A stretch of DNA of 53,556 nucleotides from a virus (taxonomy: Duplodnaviria > Caudoviricetes). Location of the stretch: positions 1 through 53,556 of the IMG/VR virus record IMGVR_UViG_3300004369_000021; one strand, 5' to 3'. A program made the translations under genes and the position numbers. The notes beneath the pieces are model-generated. The model ran no database searches, was not told the DNA's origin, and saw only the letters and a list, made by a program, of their open reading frames with translations. Positions 100 to 42,753 of the stretch are shown piece by piece; within the stretch, counting starts at the first letter, position 1; every line of letters starts with the position of its first letter.

Positions 100-135
100 C
101 GTTCGTTCCCGAACACCAACACGGGGGATCTATAA
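1..135 (+). CDS. 3' end of FN3/glycine-rich paralog 1 (starts at 52579 and wraps the junction)
   Basis: Frame 1 reads ...GAVRIIWPGTSRSFPNTNTGDL*. The stop TAA at 133-135 overlaps the next ATG, and the C-terminus matches the other two paralogs. Confidence 0.85.
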   Translation, partial: GSGGSGKTYGGGAGNNNQTGGVGAVRIIWPGTSRSFPNTNTGDL

Positions 136-1232
136 TGCCTAATTTAAGTGGTATTTGGACATCGCGTCAGCAGATGCAGGCTCGTGGGGCGAACATTTGG
201 CCAGCGGCTCCTGGTGCTCCAACGATTGGAACTGCCACAGCGACTGGGGGAGTCTCGGCGAGTGTGACGTTTACCGCTCCTGCTGACACAGGTTATCCGG
301 CTAACGCAATCACCAGCTACACGGTCACTTCAAACCCTGGAAACATAACGGCAACTGGCGCTTCTTCACCGATCGCGGTTTCTGGTTTGACGACTGGAAC
401 AACATACACATTCACGGTCACCGCCACCAACGCTTCAGGAACTGGACCAGCATCTGCCGCGAGCAACACCGTTACACCCATTGCTCAGGGTCAGCAAGCC
501 TACACTACGGCAGGGACTTACTCTTGGGTGGCTCCTGCGGCGGTAACTTCTGTTGCTGTTGTTGCTGTTGGTCCTGGTGGTCGTGGTAGTGCAGGTGCTG
601 GTGGAAACGGTGGCGGTGAGTTGCGTTATACAAATAATATTTCAGTTACTGCTGGAAATAGTTATACAGTAGTTGTTGGTGCAGCCACAGTAAATACTGG
701 CGGTGCATATGGAACATCTAGTACGTTCGCTGGTACTTTGTGTGTGGCAAACGCTGGGCAAAACGCTGTTGCCGGCTCACAAGCTGGTGTTGGTGGTAGT
801 GGCGGAACAGGTACTGGCGGTGGAAATGGTGGCTCTGGCGGTATTGCCCAGAACTCTTATGGCTCTGGTGGAGGTGCTGGTGGATATGCTGGTGCTGGTG
901 GAAACGGCTCTGGCACAGGCTCTCCCTCTTCAGGCAGCGGTGGCGGTGGCGGTGGCGGTGCGTCATACACAGGCTCCAATTATTTGGTTGCATATGGCGG
1001 CGGTGGCGTTGGGATACTTGGCCAAGGCGCAAACGGGGCTGCAGGCGGTGGCGGTGGTTCAGGGGGCAGCAATGGACTACAAGCTAACGCTCAAGGCGGC
1101 ACTTATGGTGGCGGTGGCGGCGCTGCCGATGGTTCATCAACAGTTTCAGGCCTTCCTGGTGGTGGTGCAGTCCGCATCATCTGGCCAGGAAGCAGCCGTT
1201 CGTTCCCTTCAACTAACACCGGCGATCTGTAA
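135..1232 (+). CDS. FN3 + glycine-rich virion/receptor-binding protein, paralog 2
   Basis: FN3-like segment (APGAPTIGTATA...YTVTS...GLTTGTTYTFTVTATN) followed by a Gly-rich domain ending GAVRIIWPG. Confidence 0.75.
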   Translation: MPNLSGIWTSRQQMQARGANIWPAAPGAPTIGTATATGGVSASVTFTAPADTGYPANAITSYTVTSNPGNITATGASSPIAVSGLTTGTTYTFTVTATNASGTGPASAASNTVTPIAQGQQAYTTAGTYSWVAPAAVTSVAVVAVGPGGRGSAGAGGNGGGELRYTNNISVTAGNSYTVVVGAATVNTGGAYGTSSTFAGTLCVANAGQNAVAGSQAGVGGSGGTGTGGGNGGSGGIAQNSYGSGGGAGGYAGAGGNGSGTGSPSSGSGGGGGGGASYTGSNYLVAYGGGGVGILGQGANGAAGGGGGSGGSNGLQANAQGGTYGGGGGAADGSSTVSGLPGGGAVRIIWPGSSRSFPSTNTGDL

Positions 1233-1247
1233 ATCAAGGAGAAAACC

Positions 1248-1679
1248 ATGGAACTTTTCATTCGCATCAAAGACGGCCAGCCGTTCGAGCATCCTATCTT
1301 CGGCGACAACTTCCGCCAAGCGTTTCCTGACGTTGACGTGAACAACCTGCCGCCTGAGTTTGCACGCTTCGAGCGTTTTGAGCCTCCTGCTCTTGGAGTT
1401 TACGAAAAGAACTTGCGCGTGCAGTACGAGCGCGGCGCGGACGGCGTGTACCGCGACGTTTGGCGCTGCGACAAGATGACAGCTGAAGAAGTCAAAGCCA
1501 AGCAGGATGAAGTCAAAGCGCAGTGGGCCGCAAACCCCGACGCACCCAAGTCTTGGGTTTTCAACACTGGAACTTGCGCGTTCGAGGCTCCCGTGCCTTA
1601 TCCGACAACGGGAAAGTTTTACCGTTGGGACGAACCTTCTATTTCTTGGGTTGAAATCACGCCAGAGGTGGTGGAATGA
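1248..1679 (+). CDS. Hypothetical protein, possible tail-fiber assembly chaperone
   Basis: RBS AAGGAG; lies between fiber-like paralogs; C-terminal SWVF..C.FEAPVPYP...YRWDE...W motif recurs in phage fiber-associated proteins. Confidence 0.5.
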   Translation: MELFIRIKDGQPFEHPIFGDNFRQAFPDVDVNNLPPEFARFERFEPPALGVYEKNLRVQYERGADGVYRDVWRCDKMTAEEVKAKQDEVKAQWAANPDAPKSWVFNTGTCAFEAPVPYPTTGKFYRWDEPSISWVEITPEVVE

Positions 1680-2923
1680 GCGAGCAATATCCTGGTGGTT
1701 ATATAACCAAGACACCTCCGACCCCGACGGCAACTACGGCTCCTGGTCTTTGGAGTTTGAGCCAACAAGCTGGTTACCGCAAACTTGGGTTGTGGCCGGT
1801 GTCTCCAGGAGCGCCAACCATTGGCACCGCTACGGTCACGAGCAGCACCGCCGTGAGCGTAGCGTTCACTGCGCCCGCTGACGCAGGAAGTTCTGCAATA
1901 ACGCAATACACGGCGACCTCTTCTCCAGGAGGACTCACGGGGACGGCTTCCTCTTCTCCGATAACCGTTTCTGGTTTGACAACCGGAACGACTTACACAT
2001 TCACGGTCACAGCAACCAATGGTGCAGGAACAGGACCAGCATCTGCGGCGAGTAATAGCGTCACGCCGCAAATAGTTACAGGGCAACAAGCCTACACGAC
2101 AGCGGGAACATATAGCTGGGTTGCCCCAGCGGGTGTCACTTCAGTCAGTGTCGTAACCGTCGGCGGCGGTGGCGGCGGTTCTGCCGGGCGCAGGGGAGAC
2201 AACGGCGGCGGTGGCGGCGGTGGTGGCGCGCTAGCTTATCTCAATAATTATTCCGTAACGCCAGCCAGTTCATACACCGTTGTTGTTGGGGCCGCCGGTA
2301 ATGGTTCTTCTGGTGGAGACGGTTCTGCCGGAGGATCATCATATTTTGTAAGCACGGCGACCGTTGGTGCTGGAGGAGGCGCTCAAGGGTTGTACAGTAG
2401 TGGCAACGGCGGCGCTGGTGGGTCTGTTCTTGCGGGAACGGGAGGTTCTGGCGGGGCGGGCGGTACACGCTCATCGTTGGACGCTGGAGGCGGCGGAGGG
2501 GCGGCGGGTTACGCTGGCAACGGCGGCGCTGGCGCAGCGGCTGGAACTACGGGTGCTTCAGGTTCTGGCGGCGGTGCGGGTGGCGGAACAAGCGGTGTCG
2601 GAGGACCTTTCGGGCCTCCGTACGGTTGCGGCTCAGGAGGCGGCGGTGTAGGTATTCTCGGGCAAGGAACTAACGGGTCTGGTGGCTCTCTTTCAGGAAC
2701 AACGGTCAATGGCGGCGGCGCAGGCTCAAGCGGCACAGCAGGAACAAACGCAAGTACAAATTCACAAAACGGCACGGTCGGTGGTGCGTATGGTGGCGGA
2801 GGCGGCGGAGGCGCAGCTAACGACACAACCGGAGCAGGTGCGGCTGGCGCGGTAGGCGCAGTCCGAATCATATGGCCTGGAACAACTCGCCAATTCCCTT
2901 CAACCGACACAGGAAACCTTTGA
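1676..2923 (+). CDS. FN3 + glycine-rich virion/receptor-binding protein, paralog 3
   Basis: Same architecture as 135..1232 (GQQAYTTAGTYSWVAPA and GAVRIIWPG shared). Confidence 0.75.
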   Translation: MSEQYPGGYITKTPPTPTATTAPGLWSLSQQAGYRKLGLWPVSPGAPTIGTATVTSSTAVSVAFTAPADAGSSAITQYTATSSPGGLTGTASSSPITVSGLTTGTTYTFTVTATNGAGTGPASAASNSVTPQIVTGQQAYTTAGTYSWVAPAGVTSVSVVTVGGGGGGSAGRRGDNGGGGGGGGALAYLNNYSVTPASSYTVVVGAAGNGSSGGDGSAGGSSYFVSTATVGAGGGAQGLYSSGNGGAGGSVLAGTGGSGGAGGTRSSLDAGGGGGAAGYAGNGGAGAAAGTTGASGSGGGAGGGTSGVGGPFGPPYGCGSGGGGVGILGQGTNGSGGSLSGTTVNGGGAGSSGTAGTNASTNSQNGTVGGAYGGGGGGGAANDTTGAGAAGAVGAVRIIWPGTTRQFPSTDTGNL

Positions 2924-19956: not shown

Positions 19957-20351
19957 GATTCTTTGTCCCGTACTGGTTTGGTTGTGTGCCAAAGTGCAAC
20001 CGCCATCAACTGATCGACGGTCATGTCGTTGATGGTTTCTGTGTGCTCACCGCCGATCAACATCCAACGTTTGTCGGTCACGATCAGGAAGTAAGCATTG
20101 CCCTCAGCCTTCATTTGCCGCATGAACCAGTTCTTCTGGTCTTGCGACACCTTGTGGTTGGAGCCGAACAGCTTGGTTGTTGCGCGCACAGGCTCCTTGG
20201 GTGACTTCTGCTCGATCCAGCACTCAACGCCTTCCGTGCAGTAGTTGATGTCCGGCATGCCGTTCACCACGACATTCTCAACGCGGTCGAGCCGGTCACG
20301 ACCTTGAGGAAGGTTTGCTTTCAACACCTTGTAGTCGTTGCTTTCAGCCAT
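19899..20351 (-). CDS. PD-(D/E)xK nuclease (VRR-NUC / Holliday-junction resolvase-like)
   Basis: RVEN....GMPD...WIEQK...Q..W motif, adjacent to the SNF2 helicase. Confidence 0.7.
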   Translation of the reverse strand: MAESNDYKVLKANLPQGRDRLDRVENVVVNGMPDINYCTEGVECWIEQKSPKEPVRATTKLFGSNHKVSQDQKNWFMRQMKAEGNAYFLIVTDKRWMLIGGEHTETINDMTVDQLMAVALWHTTKPVRDKESWTKLRQTLSSKPSPTGTN

Positions 20352-23100
20352 CGAGCCTCCGCCACTTGGTGATGAACGCATAGCGAATGTCGTTGAAAAA
20401 CTTGGCGCGAATCATCAAGTGCGCACCCGTCGGCACCCGCTCCAACAACTCCCTGCCGAACCGCTCGAAGTCATACCGCCCGATCCGACCGCCAATGGTG
20501 CCAGAGTCATCGCGCAACCGCACATCCACGAACTCCAGTGGACCGGTGCCGACCTTGCCTCCGCGCTTCTTGACGTTGACCTCTTCGTTGTAGTTGCGAG
20601 CGTTCTTGTAGATCAACTCGCCGAGGAACACCCGCTCTTCGTTGTGGCGGATGTTTTCAAGATCCTTGATCTCGACAACGTCGCTGGCGATGCCGTGCGT
20701 TGCCGGATCCTCGTACAAGTGCAGGTAATGGCGGCGGAACGGGAAGATGTCGGCGAAGATGTTCTCAGCCTTTTCGATTTCTTCGCGCTGCTTGTCGGTT
20801 AGCGTGCCGGAGTTGCGTGCTTCGATCAGCTTGGCGGCTTTGCTTTCGCCGATGCCTTTCAACGCCGTGAACCCGCCGTAGAGCACGCCGTCCTTGGCCG
20901 ACCAATTCATTTCTGACTTGTGCAGGTCGAACGAAACGTATTCAATGCCTTCGCGCACCATCTCGCGCAGCAACTCGACCGCGCTGTCTTCGTCCTTGGC
21001 GTTGCGCAGGTTGGCAGCAGCAAACTCCAGCGGGTGGTGCGCCTTGAGGTACGCCGTCCAGTAGCTGATAACAGCGTAGCTGAACGTGTGCGCCTTGTTC
21101 ATCTGCCAAGCACCCATCGCGTTGATGGTTTCCCACGTGGCGCGTGCTTCGGGTTCGCCGATGCCTTGGCTCGCCGCTCCTTCCTTGAACTTGGTCCAGT
21201 AGGTGTCGAAGAATTCCTTGCCCATGCGCTTAGACATCGCTTTGCGGATGGTGGAGGTTTCCTTCCAGTCGAACTTGCCGATCTCGCGCACGATGGCGAG
21301 CGTCTGCTCTTGGTAGACAGGCAGACCGTAGGTCTCCTTCATGTGCTCTTCCACTAGCGGGTGGATCGGCGTATACGCTTCACCCTTCTTGCGACGAACG
21401 TACTTTTCAGTCACGCCACCGCCGAATGGTCCAGGACGCGCCAGAGCCGTCACCGCGTCGATCTCGACGATGGTCTTGAAGTCGATGTCGCGGCTGATCG
21501 CTCGCAGGGCGTTGCCTTCGAATTGGAAGATCCCGCAAAGCCGACCGGCGTTGAACACGTCGTAGGTTTTCAAGTCATCGAACGGCAAATTGTACCAGTC
21601 AATTCCCAAGCCGCTGTCTTCGAGCACGCCCAGCGTCCGCAGACCGAGCACGTCAATCTTGAGCAACCCCAACTGTTCAGCCGCGCCTTTTTCCATGTGG
21701 GCGATGCCGTTTGCATCCACGGTTGCGTAGTTGGTGATCTCTTCGTTACAAACCAACAGCCCTGCTGCGTGCACACCGCTGTGCGAGGCGTGACCTTCCA
21801 AGAGCATTGCGGCTTTGGCTTGCGGGTATTGCTTGATGAACTCCTGACCAGGAGTGGTTTCGTTGAACGTGTCTTCCAAGCAGTTGTTGGCGCGTGAGTC
21901 GGCGGACGAACGCTCGATCATTGCAACCTTCACCGAACCCGTAGCTTGCGGAGGGATGTTCAACGCTTTGCACACCTGAATGAGTGCTGACTTGGGGCGG
22001 AACTGACCGATGGTGCCGATGTGGGCGACGTTGCTTGAGCCGTACTTCTCGGCCATGTATTCGAAGACCATGTGACGCTTGGAGTCAGGGAAGTCCAAGT
22101 CGATGTCGGGCAGGTCGGTGCGGCTGACGTCGATGAAGCGTTCGAAATACAGCTTGGGCGGGATCGGGTCGATCTCGGTGATGCGCGTCAGGTAACAAAC
22201 CAGCGAACCCGCCGCCGAGCCGCGTGATGGGCCAACGAGCATGTGTTGCTTGGCGTAGTGCACCATGTCGGCCACGATCAAGAAGTAAGACTCAAAGTCC
22301 TTGGAGCGGATCAAATCCAACTCGTACACCATCCGGTCTTCGTACTCCTGCGTCCACCGGTCTTCCATCTTGCGGAACTTGATTCCTTCACGACACCACT
22401 CTTCAAGGTTGCCCTCTGTGCGCACCATGGGTGCTTGCGGCAACTTCAACTCCGCGCATTCAGCGGCAATATCGGCGGCTGCATCTTGGTTTTCAAGCGT
22501 TTCCAAGATCCACTGCGGCGTAACCTTCAACCCTGCTCTGGAAGCCAACTCGAAAACAGCGTCGTCCTCTTTGTAAGCATAGGCATTGTCGCCTGTGCTC
22601 ACGACGCGCAAACCGTGTTGTTCAGCGATGCGCTGCTTGCGCATGTTCAGGATGCGGCTAGACGGGTTCAGGTCGATGACCGCGCCAACTTCCTTCAGGA
22701 ACTCACCGTCAACTATTTCACCAGCGAACTTCAGGATGTCGTCCGACATGTTTAAAACGTCGTTGCGGTACAGGCGCGGCAATGCGCCGGTTTTGGTAGG
22801 AATGGTCTGCTGGTGGCTCTTGCTGGTCGCCCTATACAACTCCCCAAGACCTTGCTGGTTCTTGGCTAGGAACCACATCCTGTGAGGCGTTTCGTCGTCC
22901 GAGACAACGCACTCGACGCCGAGCAGCGGTTGGATGCCTGCGTCCTTGCAACTCTTGTACCAAGCCACGTGTCCCCACGTTGAATTGTCAACGATCGCCG
23001 CCGCCGTGCAACCAATGTCTTGGAGACGCTGGATGACACGCTTGATCGGCGCAAATGTCTGGCCGAACGAGTATTCAGTCTTTACCCTTAGATGAATCAT
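20344..23100 (-). CDS. dnaE: DNA polymerase III alpha subunit (family C)
   Basis: PHP-like N-terminus, RGSAAGSLVCY, FERF, catalytic PDIDLDF, HAAG, KIDVLGL, GIFQFE, VYQEQ and NKAH motifs. Confidence 0.95.
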   Translation of the reverse strand: MIHLRVKTEYSFGQTFAPIKRVIQRLQDIGCTAAAIVDNSTWGHVAWYKSCKDAGIQPLLGVECVVSDDETPHRMWFLAKNQQGLGELYRATSKSHQQTIPTKTGALPRLYRNDVLNMSDDILKFAGEIVDGEFLKEVGAVIDLNPSSRILNMRKQRIAEQHGLRVVSTGDNAYAYKEDDAVFELASRAGLKVTPQWILETLENQDAAADIAAECAELKLPQAPMVRTEGNLEEWCREGIKFRKMEDRWTQEYEDRMVYELDLIRSKDFESYFLIVADMVHYAKQHMLVGPSRGSAAGSLVCYLTRITEIDPIPPKLYFERFIDVSRTDLPDIDLDFPDSKRHMVFEYMAEKYGSSNVAHIGTIGQFRPKSALIQVCKALNIPPQATGSVKVAMIERSSADSRANNCLEDTFNETTPGQEFIKQYPQAKAAMLLEGHASHSGVHAAGLLVCNEEITNYATVDANGIAHMEKGAAEQLGLLKIDVLGLRTLGVLEDSGLGIDWYNLPFDDLKTYDVFNAGRLCGIFQFEGNALRAISRDIDFKTIVEIDAVTALARPGPFGGGVTEKYVRRKKGEAYTPIHPLVEEHMKETYGLPVYQEQTLAIVREIGKFDWKETSTIRKAMSKRMGKEFFDTYWTKFKEGAASQGIGEPEARATWETINAMGAWQMNKAHTFSYAVISYWTAYLKAHHPLEFAAANLRNAKDEDSAVELLREMVREGIEYVSFDLHKSEMNWSAKDGVLYGGFTALKGIGESKAAKLIEARNSGTLTDKQREEIEKAENIFADIFPFRRHYLHLYEDPATHGIASDVVEIKDLENIRHNEERVFLGELIYKNARNYNEEVNVKKRGGKVGTGPLEFVDVRLRDDSGTIGGRIGRYDFERFGRELLERVPTGAHLMIRAKFFNDIRYAFITKWRRLDG

Positions 23101-23653
23101 CAGTCGTTTCCTCCCCGATCAGCAATTCCAAGAATCCGTCCTTTTGAATGCATTCGTGCAATGCCTTCACATCGTCCAGAGCACGGTGCGTTTGCGCCAA
23201 GGGGAAACCCATGATCCGCTCGTACAACTCCAACAGCTTGGGACGCTTGCCGAACTGAGAGTGATATTCCTGAACCGTGCAGACAACCTGCTCTGGCCAC
23301 GGAAAGTCCGTGCACTCAGCACGCTCCAAGTCTAGTTCAAGCATCTTCTTATCGAACGGTGCATTGTGCGCGACCAACACTTGCGTGTCGGTGAAGAATT
23401 CCTTCAGCTGCGGCAGGAAGTCTGTGAAGGTCGGCTTGTTTTCCAACATTTCATTGGTGATGCCGGTGATCTTGGTGATCTCCTCGCTGATCTCGATCTC
23501 CGGATTGATCATCTGGTTCAACTCGCGCAGGACGCCAGTCTTGTCGACCACCACCGCTCCAAGTTCAATGATGCGCGGTTGCTTTTCCAACGGCGCGGTT
23601 TTGGGCAGAGGCAATCCGGTTGTCTCAGTGTCGAATATCGCGACCTTGTTCAT
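23075..23653 (-). CDS. DEDDh 3'-5' exonuclease (DnaQ/epsilon-like)
   Basis: FDTETTG, VAHNAPFD and HRALDD motifs; overlaps the dnaE start. Confidence 0.92.
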   Translation of the reverse strand: MNKVAIFDTETTGLPLPKTAPLEKQPRIIELGAVVVDKTGVLRELNQMINPEIEISEEITKITGITNEMLENKPTFTDFLPQLKEFFTDTQVLVAHNAPFDKKMLELDLERAECTDFPWPEQVVCTVQEYHSQFGKRPKLLELYERIMGFPLAQTHRALDDVKALHECIQKDGFLELLIGEETTDDSSKGKD

Positions 23654-23676
23654 TTCAATTCCTCTTGTTTTCAGGT

Positions 23677-24144
23677 TCACTGATCGATTCGCACGATGAA
23701 CTTCAGGTCAACGCCAAGAACGAACTTGGTGTCGAATATCACGTAGTTGTACTTGCGCTTACCGGCGATGACGGGGTTGGTGTGCGAGTCGGTGAAAACC
23801 TCCTGCGCGACAGGGAACCCGCGTGCGTGGAAGAACTTGCGCCACTCGACCAACTCTTCAGCAGAGCAGTGCATGCCGAGATGGCTAACGGTGTTGCGAC
23901 CGCGCATCAGCGAGTCAACCCAGTTATCGCCGTTCGTGTAGTCCAGGATCTCAAACTCTTTGCCGCCGAACAGTTCATAGTTGAAGCTTAGATCGGCTTC
24001 GTTAGTTCCCTCCTTTCCGAAGACTTTGCCTGTGGCGACGACGTGGTCGTTGTGCCATTCGACCGCACCCATCTCGGCGAGCAACATTTTAGCGCGGACA
24101 GGGTCGGCGGGTGCGATGGCGATTTGTTCAATTACGAATTTCAT
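23677..24144 (-). CDS. VOC/glyoxalase-fold protein
   Basis: IEQIAIAP.DP, FEILDY, SHLGMHC and YVIFDT pattern resembling methylmalonyl-CoA epimerase/glyoxalase_4. Confidence 0.6.
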   Translation of the reverse strand: MKFVIEQIAIAPADPVRAKMLLAEMGAVEWHNDHVVATGKVFGKEGTNEADLSFNYELFGGKEFEILDYTNGDNWVDSLMRGRNTVSHLGMHCSAEELVEWRKFFHARGFPVAQEVFTDSHTNPVIAGKRKYNYVIFDTKFVLGVDLKFIVRIDQ

Positions 24145-24147
24145 GAT

Positions 24148-24816
24148 TTATGCTCCATAGGGAAGAATGCAACCAGTGAGGTGCTTGTGGTGGTCCTTGT
24201 CTTGCAACAAGAAGGCGATGAACTCAGCAACGCGCTCTGGGGGAGTTTCCTCACCGCAAAGCAAACCGTTCAGTTGGTATTGCTGGGCGTACTCTTTGGT
24301 CCAGCCGCGAGTTTTGACGACCTGATCGTCAATGGCGTCGCTCATGCCGGTGCCTTTGAGTTTGTTGGGCGCGACACCGAACACGGTGATGCCGTGCTTC
24401 TTGGTCAACTCACGCGCCAATTGCAGCGTCATGATGTGCGCCGCGCCTTTGGATGCGTTGTAAGCCAGCGAACAAGTCATCGGCATGTGCGCCGCGTTGC
24501 TCACGATGTTTAGGACTGTGCCCTTGCTTTTGATCAGCAGTGGCAGGTACGCTTGGGTCATCTTGAAGATGCCCTTGGCGTTTACGTCCATCACTTCGTC
24601 CCACTTCTCTTCGGTGAAGTTTTCCAGCCAATCAATCAGGTTGACGCCTGCGCAGTTGATCAGCACATCCAGCTTGTCGCATGCGATTTCCGGCTTCAAG
24701 ATGTCTTGGCCGAAGTTGCGGTCGTAGCCGATCACTTCGTGGTTGGCGGCTTCGAGAGCCTTGTAGATGGCTTTGCCGAGACCCTTGGCCGCGCCGGTGA
24801 CGAGGATTGTGCTCAT
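24148..24816 (-). CDS. Short-chain dehydrogenase/reductase (SDR)
   Basis: TGAAKGLG, LINCAG, NIVS and YNASK catalytic motifs. Confidence 0.92.
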   Translation of the reverse strand: MSTILVTGAAKGLGKAIYKALEAANHEVIGYDRNFGQDILKPEIACDKLDVLINCAGVNLIDWLENFTEEKWDEVMDVNAKGIFKMTQAYLPLLIKSKGTVLNIVSNAAHMPMTCSLAYNASKGAAHIMTLQLARELTKKHGITVFGVAPNKLKGTGMSDAIDDQVVKTRGWTKEYAQQYQLNGLLCGEETPPERVAEFIAFLLQDKDHHKHLTGCILPYGA

Positions 24817-25106
24817 TGCTTGTTTTCCTTTTCGATCAGTGATTGAACCATGGCTGCGTAAACTGCGCAGTCGTGAATGCTGTCGACGTGGGTGAGGTTG
24901 CTGTTGGCGAAGCGTGTCAGCTTAACGATCATCAACTCGAACAGGTGCCACGTGTTGAAGTCCTCTTGCGTCTTCAACTCGACGCCTTCAGGGAACAACG
25001 CGACCATCACGTCGCCGACACGCTTGTAGTTGTCGCCATAAACCTTGTTACGCTCGCGGAAGGTCTCGGCCATCTCCGCGAGGATGTCTGCTGCGTTCTT
25101 TTTCAT
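24813..25106 (-). CDS. DUF6378 / Nmad1-like nucleotide-modification-associated protein (97 aa)
   Basis: ERNKVYG...KLTR...H.DSIHDCAVYA pattern; ATGA overlaps on both sides. Confidence 0.6.
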   Translation of the reverse strand: MKKNAADILAEMAETFRERNKVYGDNYKRVGDVMVALFPEGVELKTQEDFNTWHLFELMIVKLTRFANSNLTHVDSIHDCAVYAAMVQSLIEKENKQ

Positions 25107-25582
25107 CTCATCTTCCTTGGGTTGGTGTAGGCGCACACGTTGTGAATTGACGTGTGGATGCCTTTGATGTTGTGATCGCGGTACATCTGTACCACGTCCT
25201 GCCGGTCGTCGTACGCGCAAACCACATCGCTCGGTTCGGCGTCCATCAACTTGAAGAACTTGCGCAGCTGGCGCTGTTTCAGTTCCACCGAGTGAGCATG
25301 GTCGTCCGTCGGGCGCATGAGCAGCGCGGCGCAATCGATCTTGTTGCGTTCGAGCCACTCTTGCGTGATGGGCGCGTAAAACTCCGGTCTGGCTGTGAAG
25401 ACAACGATCTCCGTGCCTTCCGGCAGGTTGCGCAGAAGGTATTGGTTGCCGAAGGCGTCGAACCCTGCCAACAAGTGATACCGGTGGTAACGCTCGAAGG
25501 GATGGTCTTTGGACCAGTCGATTTCATTGATGCGCCAGCCGTCATCGCTGATGGTGTTGTCTAGGTCGAAGATGGCGTACAC
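25103..25582 (-). CDS. HAD-superfamily phosphatase (PNKP phosphatase-like)
   Basis: IFDLDNTI, FTARPE, LLMRP..D, K and YDDR motifs. Confidence 0.85.
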   Translation of the reverse strand: MYAIFDLDNTISDDGWRINEIDWSKDHPFERYHRYHLLAGFDAFGNQYLLRNLPEGTEIVVFTARPEFYAPITQEWLERNKIDCAALLMRPTDDHAHSVELKQRQLRKFFKLMDAEPSDVVCAYDDRQDVVQMYRDHNIKGIHTSIHNVCAYTNPRKMR

Positions 25583-25584
25583 GG

Positions 25585-25947
25585 TTATTTGCTCCTCTCT
25601 GCGATGCGAGCGCGGTTGGCAGAGATTGCTTCACCGTCGGGGATCCAATGACACCACCAATCCTTGGCAATTATGCCGGTGGGCGGCGGCGTGTCGTAAC
25701 CGACCTTGTAGCCGCGACGCAGCATCTCGCCGCGCAGCTGATAGAAGCGTTGCGTGCAGAACGTGAGCCGCTTGTAAAAGAACTTCACGTGACCCGTGCC
25801 GAGCGTATACCGCTCTGGGGCGGTGACCTTGCGGTTGGCGTGGTAGGCTTTTGCAGCCAAAGTGAACACGCGAGGCAACTCTTTCCATTCGGCGAGCAGG
25901 TGCTGGCGCGACAACTCTTGCGGTGGGACGCAGTTGATCCGTGTCAT
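25585..25947 (-). CDS. denV: Pyrimidine-dimer DNA glycosylase (T4 endonuclease V)
   Basis: MTRIN...QHLLAEWKELPRVF and YTLGTGHVKFFY; Thr2, Arg3, Glu23 and Arg26 retained. Confidence 0.93.
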   Translation of the reverse strand: MTRINCVPPQELSRQHLLAEWKELPRVFTLAAKAYHANRKVTAPERYTLGTGHVKFFYKRLTFCTQRFYQLRGEMLRRGYKVGYDTPPPTGIIAKDWWCHWIPDGEAISANRARIAERSK

Positions 25948-25950
25948 GGT

Positions 25951-26673
25951 TCAACCTCCCTTGCGCATCTTGTCGACGATCTTGAGCAGCTTGCCTTTTT
26001 TGAGCAGGTCACCGCCGTATTCACGCTGCGCAAATTCCTCGATCTCAGCGAAGTAGTCGCGTCCCTCTTGGAACAAGAACTTCTCTGCCCATGGGTGCAC
26101 TTCAAGCACCGCGTCCACCATCGCGTTGACGACCTGCTGGTACTCGCCTTGCGTGCGACCACCGGTGCGGGACTTTGCAAGATCGACGAAGGTGCGCAGA
26201 TTGAACTTGCACACGATGTTGGTGGAGATGTTTGTTGGGAGCACGCCTCGTGCGTCCTCAACCGCGTGACCCATGTCGAGCAACTTGTTGTAGGTGTGCT
26301 TGATGACGGTGAGGCACTGGTTGACAGCTTCCATTGCGACAGGGTCGCTCTTGATCTTGTCGCTGTAAATGTAGTCAAACTCTCCCATGTTCAGCACGCG
26401 CATCGTCTGTTGGGCGTAAGACGCCTGACGGGTGCGAACCTGTTGGTGTGTGTACGCTCGGCTCACGCCTTCAACGAGGAAAACGTAGTCCACGAACTCC
26501 CAGCTGCTGGGGATGGTGTTGGCCATGTATTCCAACTCGGCCATCTTCTCGGTTGGGGACTTGGCGCGGATCTCGTCGAGCAGTCCAGGCGACATCGTCA
26601 GGCGCGTCGCCTTCGTGAACATCAAGAGATTTTCGGCATCTGCCGTGTGGCTTATCAAGGTTACTTTCATCAC
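25951..26673 (-). CDS. thyX: ThyX-like flavin-dependent thymidylate synthase, non-canonical active site
   Basis: F..EGVSR..THQ.VRTR.ASYAQQTMR, EDARGVLP, NLR and SR.....Q.E; signature residues are altered. Confidence 0.8.
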   Translation of the reverse strand: MMKVTLISHTADAENLLMFTKATRLTMSPGLLDEIRAKSPTEKMAELEYMANTIPSSWEFVDYVFLVEGVSRAYTHQQVRTRQASYAQQTMRVLNMGEFDYIYSDKIKSDPVAMEAVNQCLTVIKHTYNKLLDMGHAVEDARGVLPTNISTNIVCKFNLRTFVDLAKSRTGGRTQGEYQQVVNAMVDAVLEVHPWAEKFLFQEGRDYFAEIEEFAQREYGGDLLKKGKLLKIVDKMRKGG

Positions 26674-26726
26674 AATTCTCCATTCTGAGGTTTATGCGAG
26701 GGGCGGTCAACCCCTCGCCGTTGGGG

Positions 26727-42156: not shown

Positions 42157-42350
42157 ATTTTGAAACCACCTTGTTGAACCGCCTCAAGGAAGAGCAGCAC
42201 AAATTTGCTGTTGACGCCTTGAAGCGGCCACAAGAACGCGACGCTTTTGAGTACGGCTTGCGCGTTGGGGTGTTCGCCGGTTATGAGGCGGCGATCAATG
42301 TACTCTTGAAACTTCTTGATGAGGAGAAAAATGGTGACAACGACATCTGA
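42153..42350 (+). CDS. Hypothetical protein
   Basis: 65-aa helical ORF between portal and the GroES-like gene. Confidence 0.7.
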   Translation: MNFETTLLNRLKEEQHKFAVDALKRPQERDAFEYGLRVGVFAGYEAAINVLLKLLDEEKNGDNDI

Positions 42351-42753
42351 GAACGCTTTGGCAGAGGCGTTTCCGGCGGCAGACGCTGGAGTGCAGCCTT
42401 TCGGAAGCCGCGTTCTGGTTCAAATTCGAACGCCGAAGAGCAAAACTTCCGGCGGCATCATCTTGCACAGCGAGTCGCGTGACACTGAAAAGTGGAACAC
42501 ACAAGTTGCCAAGGTGGTCAGCGTTGGACCGCTCGCGTTCAAAAACCGCAACACCATGGAACAGTGGCCTGAAGGCTCTTGGTGCAAAGTCGGCGAATTC
42601 GTTCGCGTGCCGAAGTACGGCGGCGACCGATGGGAAGTCCCGCTCAGCAACAAGATGGGCGACAATGAGTCCGCAATGTTCGTAATTTTCAATGACCTTG
42701 ACATCATCGGGCAGGTAACTGGTGACCCGCTGGCGATCAAGGCGTTCATCTGA
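42331..42753 (+). CDS. GroES/Cpn10-like co-chaperonin
   Basis: QPFGSRVLV, KTSGGIIL mobile loop, VVSVGP, KVGE.V..PKYGG and ND.DII motifs. Confidence 0.85.
   Translation: MVTTTSENALAEAFPAADAGVQPFGSRVLVQIRTPKSKTSGGIILHSESRDTEKWNTQVAKVVSVGPLAFKNRNTMEQWPEGSWCKVGEFVRVPKYGGDRWEVPLSNKMGDNESAMFVIFNDLDIIGQVTGDPLAIKAFI

Follow-up and report, generated by a model that had tools for sequence, protein, structure and literature searches.

What reaction is left to a flavin-dependent thymidylate synthase (ThyX) once the residues on the carbon-donor side of its active site have been exchanged? The question is raised by an open reading frame (ORF) at 25951-26673(-), translated into 240 aa, in IMG/VR record IMGVR_UViG_3300004369_000021, a 53,556-bp virus record, complete and bounded by direct terminal repeats, that was analyzed over its whole length and is called the window below. 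A first-pass annotation had described the product as a ThyX that still binds deoxyuridine monophosphate (dUMP) and flavin adenine dinucleotide (FAD) but no longer takes its carbon from methylenetetrahydrofolate (CH2-THF). We tentatively favor the reading, given somewhat less than an even chance, that this ThyX-derived flavoenzyme forms the C5-uracil alkylating core of a nucleotide-level cassette for thymidine hypermodification, with a sugar as the favored donor, and among possible sources of the modified, sugar-type thymine of related Pseudomonas phages we regard the cassette as the best candidate.

Few Pseudomonas phages are used in therapy as much as the Pbunaviruses. Their sugar-type modified thymine is targeted by defense nucleases, and by the account of a 2025 preprint the genes for making it are unknown (PMC12191111). 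The window supplies a residue-level candidate, a ThyX rebuilt on its donor side and tied to a flavoprotein of sugar-mutase fold, in a cassette spread over thousands of phage genomes and many hosts. If the favored reading is true, flavin and nucleotide enzymology would gain a new reaction type, the resistance of Wifcevirus and related phages to restriction would be accounted for, and the motif pair TI.SSWEF / R[TSN]R...R[VIT], replacing GH...EH / RHR...RY, would be a sequence marker that predicts modified genomes. If the alkyl group is a sugar, thousands of environmental phages, that of the window included, would carry C-linked polyol-thymine DNA. If the protein is instead a plain thymidylate synthase, residues thought essential in ThyX would be dispensable.

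Donor-side residues of a ThyX relative

By sequence and predicted structure, the window gene can be placed with confidence among the genuine relatives of Thy1/ThyX. The Pfam Thy1 profile (PF02511) matched over its full length (1-191/191; E = 1.1e-32; 113.8 bits against a cut-off of 24.8), PHROG thymidylate-synthase families matched as well, and the cut-off of the NCBIfam thyX equivalog (TIGR02170) was passed marginally, at 89.8 bits against 87.9. ThyX structures were the only ones found in a PDB structure search with an AlphaFold2 model (predicted local distance difference test score [pLDDT], 93.8; predicted template modeling score, 0.88). Superposed with VIA-align, the model matched Thermotoga maritima ThyX (1o26) with a Z score of 18.3 and a root mean square deviation (rmsd) of 2.3 Å over 196 residues, which supplies the structure-based comparison proposed in the first-pass annotation, and Mycobacterium tuberculosis ThyX (3gwc) with a Z score of 18.6 and an rmsd of 2.9 Å over 203 residues; the next unrelated chain after the ThyX/PolB structures reached a Z score of 3.4. 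The match to PolB, a ThyX paralog of polyoxin biosynthesis that methylates C5 of UMP/dUMP (PDB 4P5A/4P5B), equaled that to true ThyX (4p5b; Z score, 18.1; rmsd, 2.2 Å; 198 residues). PolB is a precedent for recruitment of the ThyX fold to non-housekeeping modification of uracil at C5 (PMC5954106), but PolB is itself a methyl-transferring enzyme of a bacterial antibiotic cluster, with an unrelated gene context. The ratio of nonsynonymous to synonymous divergence (dN/dS) between the window gene and close relatives is 0.043 to 0.048 at dS of 0.44 to 0.51, and the gene is therefore under strong purifying selection.

When the window protein was compared with the PDB by phmmer, the motif regions aligned without gaps to T. 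maritima ThyX (1kq4/1o26 family). GHETPFEH of the T. maritima enzyme stands opposite TIPSSWEF, RHRIASYNELSGRY opposite RTRQASYAQQTMRV, and RADSHAQWE opposite RTGGRTQGE, whereas the ARxVLP and NxR motifs and the later Arg are intact, so that the by-eye alignment of the first-pass annotation was reproduced at each of these points, including RTR for RHR and Thr for the signature Ser. The ThyX signature RHRx7S is absent from the window protein, which reads RTRQASYAQQT. Further changes, missing from that annotation, are F57 to W, H59 to F60, N85 to A87, and Y91 to V93, and the donor-side residues of the window protein are thus I54, W58, F60, T81, A87, T90, and V93. Set against T. maritima TM0449 and M. 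tuberculosis Rv2754c (EC 2.1.1.148), with which it has in common the fold, the full Pfam domain, and the dUMP arginines, the window protein has Ile, Phe, Thr, Ala, Thr, and Val for His53, His59, His79, Asn85, Ser88, and Tyr91. All five dUMP-binding arginines of the T. maritima enzyme (R78, R80, R90, R147, and R174) are present, as R80, R82, R92, R142, and R169. They are kept in 120/120 near homologs and in 112 to 120 of 121 representatives at 50% identity, and R80, R142, and R169 are invariant in an alignment of 97 rows.

How unusual these exchanges are was judged from a residue census that used a gap-free anchor on the RxR motif; MAFFT columns put the cellular "GH" into inserts, and the raw cellular sequences read MGHLSPFEH (positions below follow T. 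maritima). One sample comprised cellular-type homologs from Desulfosporosinus, Carboxydothermus, and others, 111 of 119 being counted and 8 missing the anchor; H53, H59, H79, S88, and Y91 each occurred in 111/111. The other came from a scan of 185,579 species, one genome each, in which the best 80 of 268 matching stretches yielded 75 parsed loci and, among them, 67 canonical ThyX of varied bacterial and archaeal origin; H53, H59, H79, and S88 were present in 67/67 and Y91 in 66/67. By sequence, the first four residues are invariant and Y91 is nearly so across these 178 cellular ThyX. The question of whether the same substitutions are common in canonical ThyX, raised by the first-pass annotation, is thus answered with no at positions 53, 59, 79, and 88 and with yes for its HAQ.E segment: the change to RTQGE is real, but it carries no weight as a distinguishing change because Arg stands at the HAQ position in 118/119 cellular-type ThyX as well (a MAFFT-based count). 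M. tuberculosis ThyX, like that of T. maritima, has the canonical residues at the positions examined in HMMER alignments. A profile of 97 relatives aligned alike to the M. tuberculosis enzyme and to a Corynebacterium glutamicum protein, which we did not count as a validated ThyX because its PDB entries are titled "atypical... not required for thymidylate biosynthesis."

Conservation extends to the new residues, to differing degrees. The 120 near homologs have I53 in 120, W57 in 119, F59 in 117, T79 in 115, T88 in 119, and V91 in 120 cases. Among the 87 of 121 representatives that matched the census anchor, position 53 is mostly Ile (64; Val, 9; Leu, 6; His, 3), position 59 almost always Phe (82), and position 91 most often Val (40; Thr, 14; Ile, 12; Ala, 7; Tyr, 4), while position 79 holds Thr (64), His (10), Ser (6), or Asn (6) and position 88 holds Ser (47), Thr (26), or Ala (14). 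Judged from these counts, loss of His53, His59, and Tyr91, together with Phe57 to Trp and Asn85 to Ala, defines the clade; two exchanges listed in the first-pass annotation, RHR to RTR and Ser to Thr, are frequent but variable and hence not defining.

In T. maritima ThyX, His53 is described as stacking on the folate pterin and hydrogen bonding to Tyr91 and Asn85 (PMC11940539). Ser88 and Tyr91 have been proposed to aid transfer of the carbon carried as a flavin N5 carbinolamine, activity reportedly depends critically on Y91, and free formaldehyde can replace CH2-THF in dUMP methylation, again via the N5 carbinolamine (PMC8316439). The altered residues are thus grouped at the donor side of the flavin, with the dUMP side preserved, and a functional shift at the donor side is well supported by this pattern.

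Distribution of the clade and its flavoprotein companion

Homologs are numerous. More than 3,000 matches at E <= 0.001 were found in a collection clustered at 90%, the best 120 (74 to 96% identity) lying mostly on 35- to 60-kb contigs, and a library clustered at 50% held 714 representatives at E <= 1e-10. Among isolated phages, 522 records match the window protein, 292 of them Pseudomonas phages, and identities in this collection pass from at least 38% straight to at most 33%. The group above the gap comprises Pbunavirus, Wifcevirus, and Carpasinavirus along with Serratia, Pantoea, Vibrio, Cronobacter, and Rhizobium phages; F8, phage 109, Bas100, and XcP1 read TI[RK]SPF[ED]F and RTRTGAYQ..TSRA, a pattern like that of the window. 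Of five viruses sampled below the gap, three have all the canonical residues, ATSV carries Tyr53 and Phe91, and a Streptomyces phage has a divergent pattern of its own. The product of gene 47 of Streptomyces phage Wentworth, a "ThyX-like thymidylate synthase" of 348 aa, shows the motif RSR...S.RA and lacks His at both the His53 and the His59 positions, and by its sequence it represents a second, separate lineage of divergent phage ThyX.

A FastTree phylogeny of 148 rows (Shimodaira-Hasegawa-like [SH-like] support, without bootstrap) united 121 of them in one clade with SH-like support of 100 and a stem of 0.77 substitutions per site. The clade holds the window protein and those of F8, phage 109, Bas100, XcP1, Ss1, PVA7, and RHph_TM61, and all 25 canonical rows fall outside it. 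The genome-collection scan recognized eight parsed clade-type loci and one unparsed locus with 53% identity, all on contigs of 1.6 to 59 kb in metagenome-assembled genomes (MAGs) that carry the phage cassette; none of the best 80 of 268 stretches placed a clade-type ThyX on a larger contig that belongs to a cell. As far as these sequences go, the ThyX-like clade is large and restricted to phages, which, with its constant mutase-fold partner, sets it apart from TM0449 and Rv2754c. The extra segments of 14 long ThyX-like representatives gave no functional clue; they were limited to inteins, N-terminal extensions, a GIY-YIG homing endonuclease, and, in one canonical-type protein, a fused kinase. 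In two ThyX-like representatives (P0202 and P0214), inteins lie inside the Thy1 domain.

In the window, the ThyX-like gene belongs to a minus-strand series with tight or overlapping spacing that runs flavoprotein, three small ORFs, ThyX-like gene, DenV-like glycosylase, HAD phosphatase, DUF6378 protein, short-chain dehydrogenase/reductase (SDR), VOC-like protein, DEDDh exonuclease, DnaE-type polymerase, and SNF2 helicase (Table 1). The same order recurs in Pbunavirus 109 and F8, Wifcevirus Bas100, Xanthomonas phage XcP1, Cronobacter phage Ss1, Vibrio phage PVA7, and Ralstonia phage PY059YO380. Co-occurrence was counted in 80 IMG/VR loci with ThyX identities of 58 to 97%, only loci with enough flank entering each count (for the flavoprotein, at least 3 kb upstream). 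The flavoprotein was present in 55/55 of these loci and, in the genome collection, within 10 kb of 9/9 clade-type but 0/71 canonical ThyX loci; it is an obligate companion of the clade-type ThyX (64/64 loci against 0/71). DUF6378 (64/64) and HAD (64/67) are regular companions too, and the two form one fused protein in F8 (gp057), Bas100, and XcP1, for which reason the gene looks split in the window. The SDR (42/56; 48 to 56% identity to its Bas100 and XcP1 homologs) and the VOC protein (37/54) are optional and co-vary, the SDR being a candidate tailoring enzyme. The DenV-like glycosylase, inserted between ThyX and HAD, is likewise optional (26/74) and is missing from F8, Bas100, and XcP1.

Synteny alone is weak evidence for a joint function, since the exonuclease (52/52), DnaE (48/48), and SNF2 (39/40) are equally strict. 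The trio of flavoprotein, ThyX-like protein, and HAD/DUF6378 is nevertheless more than a passenger of the replication module, because the 203-kb T4-like Rhizobium phage RHph_TM61 keeps it within about 6 kb with no DnaE or exonuclease within 8 kb. A 49-kb Methanosarcinales MAG contig carries SDR (52%) and VOC (53%) homologs within 10 kb of a non-clade ThyX (34%) with no flavoprotein nearby; because both are paired there with a ThyX outside the clade, the SDR-VOC pair is not exclusive to the rewired enzyme.

The flavoprotein had no Pfam (E <= 5) or PDB sequence match and was not recovered as a member of the GLF family; by protein-language features it lies near amine-oxidase/NAD_binding_8 proteins. 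Its AlphaFold2 model, built from a 21-row alignment (pLDDT, 83.9), found UDP-galactopyranose mutases (UGMs) as best Foldseek match (E = 2.3e-9). With VIA-align, structural ranks 1 to 17 were all UGMs (Z scores of 16.4 to 17.7), led by Trypanosoma cruzi UGM 4dsg (Z score, 17.7; rmsd, 3.5; 287 aligned), against Z scores of 15.0 to 16.1 for protoporphyrinogen oxidases and about 14.5 for monoamine oxidases. UGM, in which N5 of the reduced flavin is the nucleophile on a sugar carbon (PMC8316439), has its fold in common with the modeled flavoprotein, which is shorter (about 300 aa against 360 to 510) and only 14 to 16% identical in sequence.

Candidate product and competing explanations

What the cassette might make is suggested by chemistry measured in related phages. 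According to the preprint of Yee et al. (2025), F8 DNA resists enzymes with TG-containing sites, and in F8 and 14-1 DNA about a quarter of T is replaced by new nucleosides derived from thymidine (362 and 390 u), of sugar type and in TG context; the authors describe Pbunaviruses as without genes previously implicated in modification (PMC12191111). Both phages carry homologs of the flavoprotein, the ThyX-like protein, and HAD-DUF6378 (gp065, gp059, and gp057 in F8; gp66, gp60, and gp58 in 14-1), the F8 proteins being 40%, 40%, and 38% (the last over DUF6378) identical to those of the window. The F8 genes stand in window order upstream of exonuclease and DnaE, and the ThyX-like protein reads RTR...T...R-A and is without His53. 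Differences from the window are the DenV-like glycosylase, which the window adds, and the SDR and VOC protein, no homolog of which was found in F8 region 40000-66015. The modified nucleosides have been measured in Pbunaviruses only. Our literature search found no paper on the cassette, on a neofunctionalized phage ThyX, or on the function of the ThyX clade, and no genes for the Pbunavirus modification, to which papers citing Yee et al. add none; the literature on Nmad1/DUF1599 gave no lead.

Palindromes in the window DNA were compared as observed/expected (O/E) ratios of 6-bp sites under a second-order Markov model, with one-sided Mann-Whitney tests on sites of two and four G/C pooled. In the window, sites of four G/C reach 1.17 when they contain TG/CA (8 sites) and 0.61 when they do not (16 sites), and those of two G/C reach 0.72 and 0.70 (P = 0.016; 0.0066 for four G/C alone). 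F8, the positive control with measured TG modification, gave 0.92 and 0.64 for four G/C and 1.03 and 0.78 for two G/C (P = 0.074), and T7, the unmodified control, gave 0.18 and 0.11, and 0.70 and 0.67 (P = 0.17). The window pattern is faintly suggestive of, and consistent with, a thymine modification that shields TG/CA sites. All-G/C hexamer palindromes have an O/E of 0.13 in the window, 5/8 being absent (CCGCGG, 0 against 23 expected; GGCGCC, 0 against 24), a loss that shows strong restriction pressure on sites beyond the protection of thymine modification. As a side observation on the TG rule, we take the DraI site to be TTTAAA. Extended Data Table 3 of the preprint lists "DraI" with the site CACNNN/GTG among the enzymes that cut F8 DNA, an entry that would contradict the rule, because this site contains TG/CA, unless DraI itself was meant (PMC12191111).

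We infer a donor other than the folate one-carbon unit because the donor-side set is lost and the dUMP side kept. By analogy with T. maritima ThyX and free formaldehyde, reduced FAD would form an N5 adduct with an aldehyde-type donor, and attack of dUMP C5 on this adduct would give a 5-substituted dUMP. The donor might be an open-chain sugar or sugar phosphate, which the mutase-like flavoprotein may help to supply; the HAD/DUF6378 pair could carry out phosphate or nucleotide-pool steps, SDR and VOC could tailor the side chain, and the product or a derivative would end in phage DNA as the modified thymine measured in F8 and 14-1. The scheme in its complete form, with the two flavoproteins jointly linking an open-chain sugar (phosphate) to C5 through the flavin N5 adduct, HAD/DUF6378 and SDR/VOC finishing the side chain, and the result serving as precursor of the 362- and 390-u nucleosides, is a specific proposal that we consider unlikely as a whole; it would amount to C-C "sugar alkylation" of a nucleotide by a flavoenzyme, a reaction that is not known for any enzyme.

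Several observations weigh against alkylation with a sugar. A nucleotide-level enzyme would leave the TG-specific pattern unexplained, and the palindrome statistics depend on a single positive and a single negative control, with modest P values. The residues newly placed on the donor side (I, W, F, A, and V) are hydrophobic, which would be unexpected around a polyol; the Trp might offer a stacking surface to a sugar ring or to a pterin. The flavoprotein may be called mutase-like at the fold level only, with a margin of about 1.5 Z over protoporphyrinogen oxidases, and hhalign against Escherichia coli Glf aligned GxGxxG only, at a probability of 1%. By hand arithmetic, 362 fits dU (228) with C5-H replaced by 1-deoxypentitol-1-yl but also 5-hydroxymethyldeoxyuridine (5-hmdU; 258) plus tetritol minus water, and 390 fits dU plus hexose minus water but also 5-hmdU plus pentose minus water; C-C and C-O linkages are equally compatible with the published values. 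The ThyX-like proteins of F8 and 14-1 differ at 19 of 305 positions (93.8% identical), none of them in motifs, and the difference between the products of the two phages cannot be traced to ThyX. Divergence between the two cassettes is greatest for two small proteins, gp58 and gp60 (about 78%), and for HAD-DUF6378 (84.6%).

The remaining difficulties also speak for an alternative that we consider a real if somewhat doubtful possibility: an ordinary synthase of thymidine monophosphate (dTMP) that still converts dUMP, with CH2-THF (or formaldehyde) as carbon source, in a rebuilt folate/NADPH pocket, the flavoprotein being its reductase or unrelated and the cassette being linked through the replication module. 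In favor of this reading, the window protein passes the cut-offs of Pfam Thy1 and, narrowly, of NCBIfam thyX, and all dUMP-binding arginines are kept. ThyA was found in 0/5 of the window, Ralstonia phage PY059YO380, RHph_TM61, Bas100, and F8, and four of these five records, as well as XcP1, have one Thy1 match each as sole thymidylate-synthase homolog; the lack of a second synthase is compatible with a dTMP-forming role but does not separate the readings. In RHph_TM61, the ThyX-like gene lies near genes for dUTPase and ribonucleotide reductase, the usual setting of plain dTMP supply. About three quarters of the thymidines of F8 are ordinary T (PMC12191111). PDB titles state that T. maritima H53A still binds folate (4GTF) and that S88A and S88C fold normally (3G4A and 3G4C). 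The claim of the first-pass annotation that the dUMP side is kept but CH2-THF lost therefore stands for the arginines and for the replacement of donor-side residues, whereas the loss of His53 alone is no proof of the loss of folate, since the H53A enzyme has folate bound. What a plain dTMP synthase leaves unaccounted for is the replacement of five residues that are invariant or nearly so in cellular ThyX, one of them (Y91) reported as critical in T. maritima, by residues that are conserved in turn, as well as the long stem branch, a clade that the genome scan recognized solely on MAG contigs of phage size, and a flavoprotein present at every clade-type locus, at no canonical one, and still retained in a T4-like phage without the DnaE module.

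A more distant candidate, which we think rather improbable, is a flavin-dependent dUMP hydroxymethylase or related one-carbon enzyme, in which the exocyclic methylene would be hydrated, and not reduced, to 5-hydroxymethyl-dUMP and the product decorated later, possibly after replication, with a tetritol or pentose. Besides the fit to both masses, the position of the changed S88 and Y91 beside the transferred carbon speaks for it; the rebuilt H53, N85, and H59 would not be needed for such a change. The reduction of 5-hmdU to T on DNA is known for phage phiW-14. A further reduction on DNA would be required here too, the leftover bases of F8 being T and not 5-hmdU. Known thymidine hypermodifications begin at 5-hmdU and are finished on DNA, which would allow a TG pattern; in that pathway (phages M6, ViI, and PaMx11), as in the proposed cassette, a thymidylate-synthase relative acts on dUMP and bulky C5 groups block nucleases, but the dUMP hydroxymethylase is of the ThyA fold, a kinase (5-HMUDK) and a transferase (aGPT-Pplase) complete the work on DNA, and the substituents described are derived from amino acids and not sugar-like (PMC8989533). 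No P-loop nucleobase kinase or aGPT-Pplase-type transferase was found among 55 chosen ORFs with Pfam at E <= 0.001, no dedicated profile having been run, and the F8 authors state that Pbunaviruses have none of the known modification genes (PMC12191111). A catalytically dead scaffold or regulator that binds dUMP or FAD in the replication module, for which the lost RHRx7S signature and Ala at position 88 in 14/87 representatives could be cited, is very improbable given the very strong purifying selection, the retention of all substrate-binding arginines, and the inteins inside some members, which are typical of essential enzymes.

Feature coordinates and other genes of the window

The ThyX-like protein probably starts at ATG 26670 and not at GTG 26673, one codon before, because GGAGA sits 7 nt upstream of the ATG. 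Between this ribosome-binding site and the upstream ORF lies a G+C-rich inverted repeat that might act in attenuation or mark a site of RNA processing. From the ORF coordinates alone, the likely ATG of DUF6378 at 25106 would overlap the HAD stop (ATGA, 25103-25106). The VOC protein had no Pfam or PDB sequence match.

Table 1. Coordinates of the ThyX-like gene, its neighbors, and further features in the 53,556-bp window
Feature	Coordinates	Strand	Remarks
ThyX-like (Thy1 fold) gene	25951..26670	-	239 aa counted from ATG 26670
Shine-Dalgarno-like GGAGA	26677..26681	-	7 nt upstream of ATG 26670; bases read directly
G+C-rich inverted repeat	26696..26719	-	Arms of 9-10 bp, loop of 5 nt, no T run after it
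Flavoprotein, 303 aa	27820..28731	-	N-terminal GxGxxG; PHROG 4828
T4 endonuclease V-like (DenV-like) pyrimidine-dimer DNA glycosylase	25585..25947	-	Pfam Pyr_excise 1e-12; PHROG 1183
HAD-superfamily phosphatase, PNKP-phosphatase type	25103..25582	-	Pfam HAD_PNKP 1.6e-8
DUF6378 small helical protein	24813..25106	-	Pfam DUF6378 1.6e-4, below cut-off; PHROG 4889 5e-31
Short-chain dehydrogenase/reductase (SDR, FabG-like)	24148..24816	-	Pfam adh_short 4.4e-35
VOC/glyoxalase-like protein, 155 aa	23677..24144	-	Glyoxalase_4 clusters matched by protein-language features (0.92-0.96)
DEDDh 3'-5' exonuclease, polymerase proofreading subunit	23075..23680	-	Pfam RNase_T 4.9e-29
Phage DnaE-type DNA polymerase III alpha	20344..23100	-	Pfam DNA_pol3_alpha 1.1e-65; cassette directly upstream, same strand
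Fibronectin type III, then glycine-rich domain (Gly_rich_2)	135..1232	+	PHROG 4474; paralog of 1676..2923
Fibronectin type III, then glycine-rich domain (Gly_rich_2)	1676..2923	+	PHROG 4474, also in tail-fiber-assembly PHROG
Virion-type protein, 952 aa	36650..39508	+	VanY D-Ala-D-Ala carboxypeptidase domain
GroES-like co-chaperonin	42316..42753	+	Before head genes

Overall, the window encodes terminase, portal, capsid, and tail proteins along with a primase-polymerase, the SNF2 helicase, and the DnaE-type polymerase. The two fibronectin type III paralogs near its left end are probably tail fiber or receptor-binding proteins, and a large virion-type protein with a VanY domain and a GroES-like co-chaperonin are encoded on the plus strand.

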